This document shows, one piece after another, positions 53 through 1,229 of a stretch of 5,847 nucleotides of DNA (position 1 is its first letter; each line of letters opens with the position of its first letter). This DNA comes from a virus. Its lineage: Duplodnaviria; Heunggongvirae; Uroviricota; Caudoviricetes. The position numbers and the translations under genes were made by a program. The stretch is from IMG/VR virus record IMGVR_UViG_2700989164_000009, one strand, 5' to 3'. The notes under the pieces are model-generated. The model was not told where the DNA came from, ran no database searches, and was given only the letters and a program-made list of their open reading frames with translations.

Positions 53-517
53 TTGCCAGTACACCTCAAAGAGAGTAAATCAAACCGCGCAATTGGCGTT
101 GCGCTGAATGATACTGCATGTCGCGTATTGAAAAAACAAATCGGAAATCATCACCGTTGGGTATTTGTGTACAAGGAAAGCTGTACCAAACCAGACGGAA
201 CGAAAGCGCCAACAGTAAGGAAGATGCGGTATGACGCAAACACAGCCTGGAAAGCGGCGCTGAGACGGGCTGGTATTGATGATTTCAGATTTCACGACTT
301 GAGACACACCTGGGCAAGTTGGCTGGTTCAAGCCGGAGTCCCGTTATCAGTGTTACAGGAAATGGGAGGCTGGGAGTCTATCGAAATGGTTCGTCGATAT
401 GCTCACCTCGCACCTAATCACCTTACCGAACACGCACGGCAAATAGACTTGATTCTGAACCCATCGGTCCCAAATTTGTCCCAGTCAAGAAATAAGGAAG
501 GTACTAATGATGTGTAA
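53..517 (+). CDS. int: Tyrosine integrase (phage integrase family), C-terminal catalytic domain only; the 5' part lies upstream of the window and the frame is interrupted at 41-43
   Basis: Translation carries the tyrosine-recombinase catalytic signature: K in 'HLKESKS', 'FHDLRHTW' (H-x-x-R), 'GGWESIEM', and 'MVRRYAHL' (catalytic Tyr), with lambda-Int-like spacing. Gene ends 15 bp before the att core and is transcribed toward it. Codon 53-55 is TTG immediately after an in-frame TAG, so the listed ORF start is not a real initiation site. Confidence 0.88.
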
Positions 518-531
518 CTTATTGATTTAAA

Positions 532-577
532 TGGTGCCGATAATAGGAGTCGAACCTACGACCTTCGCATTACGAAT
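532..577 (-). other. Phage attachment core (attP): 46 bp matching the 3' part of tRNA-Thr(CGU) (thrW-type), from anticodon loop to CCA end; not a complete tRNA gene
   Basis: Reverse complement of 532-577 reads ATTCGTAATGCGAAGGTCGTAGGTTCGACTCCTATTATCGGCACCA: anticodon CGT in a loop context, T-arm GGTTCGACTCC, acceptor 3' strand and CCA. Sequence 5' of this on the tRNA strand (578-610) has no D-arm or acceptor 5' strand. Flanked by int on one side and gtrA on the other. Confidence 0.8.
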
Positions 578-636
578 CTGTAGCACCAATCATAACTATC
601 TGTTTTAGCAAGCATTAACCGCATTCACTAAGATAT

Positions 637-664
637 AGTTGATGGCACAAACAGAAAGTTGATG
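637..664 (+). repeat. Direct repeat AGTTGATG x2 (637-644, 657-664) in the att arm; candidate arm-type integrase or accessory-protein binding sites
   Basis: Two identical 8-mers spaced 20 bp (about two helical turns) about 60 bp from the att core. GGCACAA or GCACAAA recurs nearby at 644-650, 696-702, 739-745. Confidence 0.3.
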
Positions 665-866
665 AATGATGTTGCCATATATATGTCACAAATACGGCAC
701 AACGATCTTCAAACATATAGCCACACATTCACAGAAGAGCACAAAGCCTTGCAATCCAGTGCAAAGATTTGTGTGCCAGAGTTTTTCTCATCAACTACCG
801 CAAGTATCGATCGATTGAGACTTGGATGATAGACTTCATGCCTTTGATTATTAGCTGATAGAAGAA

Positions 867-1229
867 ATGTTAAAGCTATTTGCAAAGTACACATCTATAG
901 GCGTGCTGAACACACTTATACACTGGGTGGTTTTTGGTGTATGTATCTATGCCGCGCATACCAATCAGGCTATGGCAAACTTCGCAGGTTTCGTTGTGGC
1001 TGTGAGTTTTAGCTTCTTTGCGAATGCAAAATTCACATTCAAAGCATCAACTACAACGATGCGCTACATGTTATATGTCGGGTTCATGGGAACACTGAGT
1101 GCTACTGTTGGATGGGTTGCTGATAGATGTTCACTTCCTCCAATTGTCACTCTTGTTACCTTCTCCGCCATCAGCTTGGTGTGCGGTTTCGTCTATTCAA
1201 AGTTCATTGTCTTTAGGGATGCGAAATGA
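867..1229 (+). CDS. gtrA: GtrA, small membrane protein of the O-antigen glucosylation (serotype conversion) operon, proposed flippase for undecaprenyl-phosphate-glucose
   Basis: 120 aa with four hydrophobic segments; first gene after attP; stop overlaps the gtrB start (ATGA at 1226-1229). Sequence matches what I recall of the conserved GtrA of P22/SfV-type phages. Confidence 0.88.

Follow-up and report, generated by a model that had tools for sequence, protein, structure and literature searches.

An int–core–gtrA junction at thrW that is very probably the attR of an integrated SfX prophage beside an older integrase stump

Introduction

When an integrase reading frame, a phage attachment core and a gtr operon are found side by side, does their contiguity identify the attP of a free phage genome, or may an integrated prophage present the same order? 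The question is raised by a stretch of 5,847 nucleotides (the window, meaning the whole stretch of DNA analysed), in which an integrase-family frame ending at 517 lies on one side of an att core and gtrA (from 867), followed by gtrB, on the other. This arrangement, correctly recognised in the original prediction, had been taken to show the attP form and to derive the window from a circular or virion genome, or else from an excised or tandem form. Experimental junctions are available for comparison from serotype Y strain 036, which was lysogenised with SfX and whose resulting junctions were all sequenced by PCR (Sun et al. 2011, BMC Microbiol 11:269; PMC3306764).

Layout of the window

The features collected in Table 1 were mapped from six-frame open reading frames (ORFs) together with Pfam and BLAST searches of the window. 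An apparent ORF start at 53 (TTG) is spurious, positions 1–68 being the end of IS600 and integrase homology beginning only at 69, and three small frames in the P arm (659–829, 666–818 and 709–894) were rejected as chance ORFs, since this region is conserved as non-coding attP DNA in phages devoid of gtr. A search for the gtr promoter over 400–3600 returned 10 promoter-like sites against 11.7 expected, which makes no case for a gtr promoter. The gtrX and tailspike genes converge on the terminator-like hairpin. No housekeeping gene lies within the window.

Table 1. Features of the window, with coordinates, strand and basis of assignment.
Feature	Position	Strand	Basis or remark
Right end of IS600	1–68	+	final codons of the transposase reach 26; the terminal inverted repeat comes next
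int', 3' remnant of an SfI/P22-type tyrosine integrase (codons 240–387 and stop)	69–517	+	Pfam, BLAST
Two P'-arm arm-type sites of P22/SfI type, GTCCCA	467–472, 478–483	+	-65 and -54 from core start
Spacer, 18 bp after CCA, GTAACTTATTGATTTAAA on + strand	514–531		flank comparison
att core, 46 bp, thrW tRNA-Thr(CGU) nt 31–76	532–577	-	46/46 match
P arm of SfX/HK542 (CP4-6) att type	578–790		identity to U82084 and the HK542 group
Non-coding stretch between int' and gtrA	518–866		ORF map
gtrA, bactoprenol-glucose flippase component	867–1229	+	Pfam GtrA_DPMS_TM E=2.6e-13; annotated homologues in SfI, SfV, SfII
gtrB, bactoprenol glucosyltransferase, GT2	1226–2143	+	Pfam Glycos_transf_2 E=1.2e-30
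gtrX, serotype-specific glucosyltransferase of phage SfX, intact	2156–3421	+	identity to L05001.1
GC-rich hairpin, terminator-like	3452–3479	+	11-bp stem with 8 GC pairs; consensus match only
P22-like tailspike gene, frameshifted	3488–5204	-	Pfam Head_binding E=3e-63, N-terminal part
HNH-AP2 endonuclease-like gene	5292–5798	+	Pfam HNH_3 E=1.5e-20, weak AP2 match
Left end of IS2	5783–5847	+	100% identical to U82084 463–527

The att core and the half tRNA

The reverse complement of the core, ATTCGTAATGCGAAGGTCGTAGGTTCGACTCCTATTATCGGCACCA, equals nucleotides 31–76 of a 76-nt tRNA-Thr at every one of its 46 positions, with the anticodon CGT at position 34, the reference tRNA being annotated beside proA in E. 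coli ES9 and recovered by ARAGORN in locus L013. It begins with the final base of the anticodon stem's 5' strand, takes in the anticodon loop and finishes at CCA. Even with as many as 3 mismatches tolerated, the 46-mer has a single match in the window, and 200 shuffles gave none. On its 5' side the 12 bases TTGGTGCTACAG differ from the corresponding tRNA bases GTAGAGCAGCGC, and neither ARAGORN nor an Rfam E-value scan called a tRNA in the whole window; taken together, the non-matching bases and the lack of a tRNA call indicate that the 5' half (nucleotides 1–30) is truly missing. The empty ARAGORN and Rfam scans fit a half tRNA and are otherwise uninformative.

Two elements of the original prediction are thereby upheld, namely the match of the core to the 3' 46 bp of tRNA-Thr(CGU) and the absence of the 5' half. 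An identical 46-mer has been published as the core shared by the att sites of SfI, SfII, SfV, SfX and P22 (PMC3636060). A partial 3' copy of the tRNA is, however, as much to be expected at an attR as at an attP. Core and spacer together form 64 bp of usable identity, the spacer being present alike in the attP of SfX and in the attB flank of S. flexneri (published sequences A, C and E), with identity to the SfX record U82084 at 100% from 514 onward and SfI-type identity running up to 577. The question accordingly turns on the DNA to the int side of the core.

Arm motifs and flank types

Each of the reference attP sites carries a single hexamer motif on both arms at matching offsets from the core start. 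In P22 this is GTCCCA at -65, -54, +100, +154 and +165; in SfI it is GTCCCA at -65, -54 and +100, with GTCTCA at +154 and +165; and in SfX (U82084) and HK542 it is GGCACA at -65, -54, +112 and +164, with GTCACA at +153. The five-site arm layout of the P22 attP was reportedly described by Smith-Mungo, Chan and Landy in 1994, the SfX type differing in the hexamer. We infer from positional conservation, and from the known P22 attP architecture, that these hexamers are putative binding sites of the Int N-terminal domain. The window departs from the common pattern, combining GTCCCA at -65 and -54 with GGCACA at +112 and +164 (644–649 and 696–701), the latter accompanied by a degenerate GTCACA at 685–690 and an inverted TGTGCC at 772–777. 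Such mismatched arms point to a junction between two elements, unlike an attP.

Typing of the flanks across reference sites leads to the same division. True SfX and HK542 sites are X-type on both sides and true SfI is I-type on both, whereas the window joins an X-type P arm to an I-type P' flank. Its P arm is 100% identical to SfX U82084 over 514–814 and 97–98% identical, up to about 786, to the annotated attP of HK542, mEp213, mEp043 and ECP1, with which the core is also shared, and a comparison with the SfI and P22 P arms revealed no similarity. The P' flank, in contrast, is identical to those of SfI and of loci L008 and L012, so that past the shared 64 bp the window reads ACACATCATTAGTACC as in SfI, where SfX U82084 and HK542 read CTCGCATTTAAGTA. 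A true attP of the SfX type has an X-type P' arm, in which GGCACA occupies both -65 and -54, together with an uninterrupted Int of 386 aa, in place of the GTCCCA sites and the truncated SfI-type int found here. Conversely, the attP sites of P22 and of SfI, SfII, SfV and SfIV share the core, the int–core–gtrA order and the type of P' arm and int' seen in the window, but their P arms are unrelated to it, carrying GTCCCA or GTCTCA at +100, +154 and +165, none of which occurs in the window. The two sides of the core thus derive from two different att/int systems.

The integrase remnant and IS600

The integrase frame adjoining the core belongs with the P' arm. Its Pfam match (Phage_integrase, E=5.5e-30) covers only profile positions 61–171, and it represents the 3' 38% of the gene, codons 1–239 having been removed by IS600 at 68/69; no xis was found in the window by Pfam or in the ORF map. 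The encoded fragment shares 98.6% of its residues with SfI Int, 87.8% with P22 Int and 61.7% with Int of the SfX/HK542 type (at the nucleotide level 98.2% to SfI over 69–577 and about 70–71% to U82084, P' arm and int' together being 80% identical to P22). For comparison, overall identity between the two Int types is 55%, and it is 59% in the N-terminal 70 aa, the part that would read the arm sites. The integrase next to the core is accordingly classed by its alignments as SfI/P22 type and is not that of SfX. As for the insertion element, copies of positions 1–68 are scattered over loci L007–L016 in either orientation, and the full IS600 of L012 (6560–7913) is 99.3% identical to sequences annotated as 'IS3-like element IS600 family transposase'.

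Published SfX junctions

The experimental lysogens allow a direct comparison of the window with each type of junction. In the attB of 036 (sequence A, Additional file 1) proA and thrW are followed by TTTAAATCAATAAGTTACACATCATTAGTACCTTC and a resident 'putative phage int', so that this serotype Y parent, carrying neither SfX nor SfI, already has an integrase flank after thrW; the SfX attP (sequence C) ends in ...GTTACCTCGCATTTAAGTA and continues into intX; and the attR of 036_X (sequence E) runs from gtrA through the P arm and core to ...GTTACACATCATTAGTACC and the resident int (PMC3306764). The window aligns to sequence E through its final base, ...GTTACACATCATTAGTACC, and leaves sequence C exactly where E does, although the published sequences offer only 16 discriminating bases beyond the shared segment. 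Three small indels distinguish the window from the paper's sequences, but as they are common to all of those sequences they do not discriminate between them.

The attR of 036_X and 036_1d (sequence E, PMC3306764) thus shares with the window the P arm, core, spacer and flank (ACACATCATTAGTACC, leading to 'putative phage int'), and also the order of IS600, IS629 and yaiC, all of which, with the putative int, are named at this locus in the legend to Fig. 2 of Sun et al. (PMC3306764). Apart from the three indels running through that paper there is no substantive difference at the junction, to which the lineage of the window adds a tailspike frameshift and an IS2 insertion. Two features of an attR are therefore present, a partial 3' tRNA copy joined through an X-type P arm to gtrA, and a distal flank equal to the DNA found after thrW when attB is unoccupied, which the window matches in sequence A as it does in sequence E.

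Chromosomal context and surveys

The window is matched at 99.98% by L012, a 4.65-Mb chromosome (CP020339.1), without a mismatch over 1–5783. Beyond an IS629-like element in this chromosome come adrA/yaiC, proC and aroL. The element beside IS600 in L012 has an end like that of IS629. This agrees with the locus of PMC3306764, and the complete order, adrA(yaiC)–IS629-like element–IS600–int'–core–gtrABX, is that of Fig. 2 of Sun et al. (PMC3306764). Host chromosomal DNA and an intact tRNA gene directly abutting the segment were what the original prediction had named as evidence against itself; the former does follow in L012, where adrA/yaiC is reached some 2.5 kb leftward, but the segment adjoins no intact tRNA.

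The reciprocal junction is seen in related chromosomes. In L010, L013 and L015, which encode an identical GtrX, an SfX-type int (98.7% nucleotide identity to U82084) is the neighbour of proA and a complete thrW, the arrangement expected of the companion attL (full thrW, X-type flank and int by proA). As this int is situated a few kb beyond the tailspike gene, the cognate int and the gtr cluster occupy opposite ends of the prophage. The expectation, voiced in the original prediction, that int and gtr should be separated in this manner upon integration is therefore sound as regards the cognate integrase; it was misapplied to the int next to the core, which is not cognate.

The mixed junction (window 400–720) was found in none of 50,697 phage records at a coverage of at least 80%, and in 48 of 5,426 complete E. 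coli genomes; it occurs too in L007, L008 and L012, which are independently assembled multi-megabase chromosomes. In IMG/VR the mixed junction appears in 11 contigs and the matched junction in 5, scans that do not discriminate between the readings, and two of these 11 carry the same truncated int' as the window. Judging by identifier format, most IMG/VR matches are presumably provirus calls from isolate genomes, and the 11 mixed-junction contigs do not demonstrate a free phage.

Two of the 48 E. coli genomes, ES9 (NZ_CM184323.1) and GF66.2 (NZ_CP172145.1), present the same P(X)–core–P'(I) arrangement, which here joins a P22-like gtrABC/tailspike end to an I-type int, with an X-type int beside intact thrW–proA at the other end. 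In their order, proA–thrW–intX...tailspike–gtrCBA–P(X)–core–P'(I)–intI–second prophage, the mixed junction forms the seam between tandem thrW prophages. Both genomes differ from the window in having a full-length I-type int with its own xis and prophage, and in their gtrC and tailspike alleles (87% nucleotide identity over 69–2107). GF66.2 was also considered as a permuted attP-form prophage away from thrW, a notion set aside once a further 38 kb proved to be an ordinary tandem array ending in thrW–proA. In E. coli K-12, CP4-6/ptwF provides another parallel, a 46/46 partial copy of thrW marking the right end of a cryptic prophage, followed by X-type P'-like DNA, though it involves another prophage, another flank type and no gtr cluster. 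As a candidate for a native phage-free attB flank, ptwF was discarded, being itself followed by this X-type P'-like remnant.

The gtr cluster and prophage decay

Positions 2150–3877 are 100% identical to L05001.1, 'Shigella phage SfX glucosyl transferase', and the index of the assembly collection has the exact 421-aa GtrX in 1795 blocks, the ten places listed lying on contigs of 1.4 to 4.7 Mb. With a GtrA flippase, a GT2-family GtrB and a type-specific third transferase in one operon, the three intact genes would constitute an SfX-type gtrABC O-antigen glucosylation cluster. The assignment of the element to the thrW-integrating, gtr-bearing serotype-converting phages made in the original prediction is correct.

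Other parts of the prophage are damaged. A +1 frameshift caused by a run of 8 C at 4069–4076 splits the tailspike gene into two overlapping ORFs, whereas in L007, L008 and L011 the run is 7 C long and the gene, of 570 aa, is intact; removal of one C from the window restores a single frame of 571 codons. Because L012 shares the 8-C allele, it is probably a real mutation of the lineage. IS2 replaces the last 5 codons of the HNH-AP2 gene (...GYHRLAP*, compared with ...GYHENHGR* in L012, from which the insertion is missing), and its end in the window, from 5783, corresponds to the IS2 that splits the SfX int in U82084. E. coli genomes contain multiple copies of this IS2 end, one of which, in E. 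coli M8, is located 27 bp upstream of a CDS with the annotation 'IS3-like element IS2 family transposase'. With its tailspike frameshift and IS2 insertion the prophage appears to be decaying, yet it is predicted still to be serotype-converting.

Interpretation of the junction

Taken together, the evidence makes it highly probable that the window is the attR of an integrated, decaying SfX prophage lying beside an older integrase stump cut by IS600. A chromosomal origin is indicated by the IS sequence at both ends and by the match to L012 at 99.98%, and the 100% matches to SfX records and to the published junctions argue for S. flexneri, so that the window appears to be a piece of a Shigella flexneri-type chromosome. 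Sixty-odd bases of IS sequence at each end suggest that it is probably a short-read contig breaking in IS600 and IS2.

The proposed course of events is simple. Int-mediated recombination between attP and the thrW attB would have integrated SfX, leaving thrW–intX on the proA side (attL) and gtrX–gtrB–gtrA, P arm and 46-bp core on the yaiC/adrA side (attR). The DNA that follows the unoccupied thrW in S. flexneri would itself be the stump of an older thrW prophage, comprising an SfI/P22-type P' arm and int, the latter subsequently cut by IS600. With such a stump in place, the attR would read gtrA–P(X)–core–P'(I)–int' and so mimic the int–attP–gtrA order, while the undamaged gtrABX genes would fix the group 7,8 O-antigen modification. 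The junction seems to have kept all parts of an attR for excision by IntX and Xis, namely the X-type P arm and the core; from the motif mismatch, we infer that it would be unable to serve as an attP for either integrase.

Three other readings were weighed against this one. According to the first, the window is the seam of two contemporaneous serotype-converting prophages, SfX and an SfI/SfII/SfV-like phage, in a double lysogen. Tandem SfI–SfX lysogens do exist, although SfI, in double lysogens made experimentally, goes in on the proA side of SfX, away from the present junction, and the integrase flank is already there in the parent 036 (PMC3306764). Similarly, ES9, GF66.2 and L008 have a full-length I-type int at the same core with xis or phage genes upstream, and L007 has a second gtr cluster, but in the window and L012 IS600 interrupts the I-type int at codon 240, and beyond that element there is only a second IS and adrA/yaiC. 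A double lysogen of this kind is hence very unlikely, and the tandem form contemplated in the original prediction comes close only in a formal sense, as a tandem with an ancient remnant; its excised form is unsupported.

The second reading, that of a genuine attP of a circular, virion or freshly excised SfX-like genome with its own int beside the core, draws on the canonical int–core–gtrA order of SfI, SfV, SfII and P22, on the 46/46 identity of the core with thrW nucleotides 31–76 expected of an attP, and on the 100% identity of the core and whole P arm with the SfX record U82084. Yet in place of an intact cognate int with xis there are only codons 240–387, the last 148 before IS600, of a gene of the wrong type (62% aa identity to IntX); putative arm sites for one and the same integrase are not found on both arms, which have two GTCCCA and two GGCACA, respectively; and the P' flank is unlike that of the published SfX attP but identical to those published for attR and attB. 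The junction occurs in none of the 50,697 phage records at a coverage of at least 80%, the window matches a 4.65-Mb chromosome in which adrA follows, and the IS2 insertion and tailspike frameshift mark a decaying prophage. This reading must be regarded as extremely improbable, and with it fall both the claim that int–core–gtrA contiguity shows the attP form and the proposed circular or virion origin. An assembly artefact, in which a chimeric contig joins attL and attR reads through the 64-bp repeat found at both prophage ends, would suit a window bounded by IS fragments as short-read contigs are, but can be dismissed almost entirely given the recovery of the junction in L007, L008, L012 and 48 complete E. 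coli genomes, and by PCR sequencing (PMC3306764).

Implications

If the window is read as an SfX attR, it holds little new biology, for SfX, the thrW core, the gtrABX cluster and the exact attR junction have all been published. The mixed junction may nonetheless not be inert, since it places a complete X-type attR and a complete I-type attL half-site around one core, and heterologous or sequential action of Int and Xis could excise composite or re-sorted elements. We consider this conjecture unlikely, but were it true, gtr modules would have moved between podovirus and lambdoid or myovirus backbones at crowded thrW arrays, and the presence of both reciprocal junction types in L007 and of an X-X junction in L011/L014 would be traces of such re-sorting. 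The five-site layout, with its hexamer swap from GTCCCA to GGCACA, would then exemplify a natural reprogramming of integrase arm specificity on a fixed scaffold.

The more immediate lesson concerns the thrW locus of Shigella and E. coli, where thrW is usually followed by the integrase stump of an earlier prophage, so that neither int–core–gtrA contiguity nor a partial tRNA copy can separate attP from attR. Three checks do discriminate, the arm motifs of both arms, the type of the integrase in relation to that of the P arm, and truncation of the integrase by an IS element, and with them a contig of chromosomal origin would not be mistaken for a phage or circular genome.

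Arm sites and the gtr upstream module

The arm sites of the window (467–483 and 644–701) were compared with those of L004 (the SfX int/attP record, U82084.1), L005, L001 and L006. A common layout, with two sites at -65 and -54 and three on the other arm, is found in both the P22/SfI-type and the SfX/HK542-type attachment regions, while the arm hexamer itself is GTCCCA in the former versus GGCACA in the latter, as if specificity had been swapped cleanly and the scaffold conserved. Similarity between the window and many E. coli gtr clusters located elsewhere (annotated yfdG/yfdH) starts at window position 732–734, and the outer portion of the P arm is therefore a shared gtr upstream module (window 732–866). 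This module contains a single GATC, within ATCGATCGAT at about 806–815, and promoter calls did not exceed chance. As for the public SfX int record, the whole U82084.1 entry is annotated 'IS2' and its int coding sequence is given as a join spanning an IS2 insertion; although easily mistaken for an insertion sequence record, the entry contains the true SfX xis-int-attP.

Changes in the tailspike and HNH-AP2 genes

The tailspike gene of the window carries a run of eight C at 4069–4076, versus seven in the comparison loci L007, L008 and L011, resulting in a +1 frameshift. Because the complete chromosome L012 (CP020339.1) has the same eight-C allele, a sequencing error seems less likely than an inactivating mutation specific to this lineage. 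Comparison with L007–L016 also showed the gene to be mosaic across window 4250–4697. L009–L016 match the window tailspike at 98% up to ~4249 and at 91–93% from 4698 onward, and the roughly 450 bp of 4250–4697 gave no alignment for these loci at the megablast level; L007 and L008 match over the full length.

Features at the distal end of the window
Feature	Window coordinates	Position
HNH-AP2 endonuclease-like gene	5262–5798	between tailspike and mnt/arc genes
IS2 left end	5783–5847	in last codons of HNH-AP2 gene

The IS2 element alters the HNH-AP2 C-terminus from ...GYHENHGR* to ...GYHRLAP*. Its insertion is recent, because L012 (13628–13646), otherwise identical to the window, is without it. 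Among SfX-type prophages the HNH-AP2 gene is present in L007, L011, L012 and L014, and absent from L008–L010, L013, L015 and L016; in L008, L010, L013, L015 and L016 the gene-less site lies around 13045–13167. Such a patchy presence would fit a mobile, homing-type insertion.

Junction variants in related chromosomes

In E. coli K-12 (NC_000913.3, 710–815) ptwF, a partial thrW copy at the CP4-6 end, matches the 46-bp att core at 46/46 positions and is followed by DNA that contains a TGTGCC site and resembles the X-type (SfX/HK542) P' arm; even here, then, a layered remnant lies behind the tRNA copy. Both reciprocal mixed junctions occur in the single chromosome L007 (2068–2113 and 8377–8422), in inverted orientation and with IS600 copies in between; P(X)-core-P'(I) adjoins gtrX, and next to a second gtr cluster is P(I)-core-P'(X), the counterpart of the SfI–SfX seam reported as sequence F by Sun et al. 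(PMC3306764). The inversion was presumably IS600-mediated. In L009, L010, L013 and L016 (around 8329–8399) an IS600 end adjoins the window-equivalent position 550, placing the element inside the core, and the truncated SfI/P22-type integrase remnant and half of the core are lost. Finally, in L011 and L014 (8003–8422) an SfX-type int stump (99% to U82084), likewise truncated by IS600 and with adrA close by, adjoins the same core and gtrA. This X–X chromosomal junction is indistinguishable in composition from a true attP, providing more evidence against contiguity alone as diagnostic of attP.
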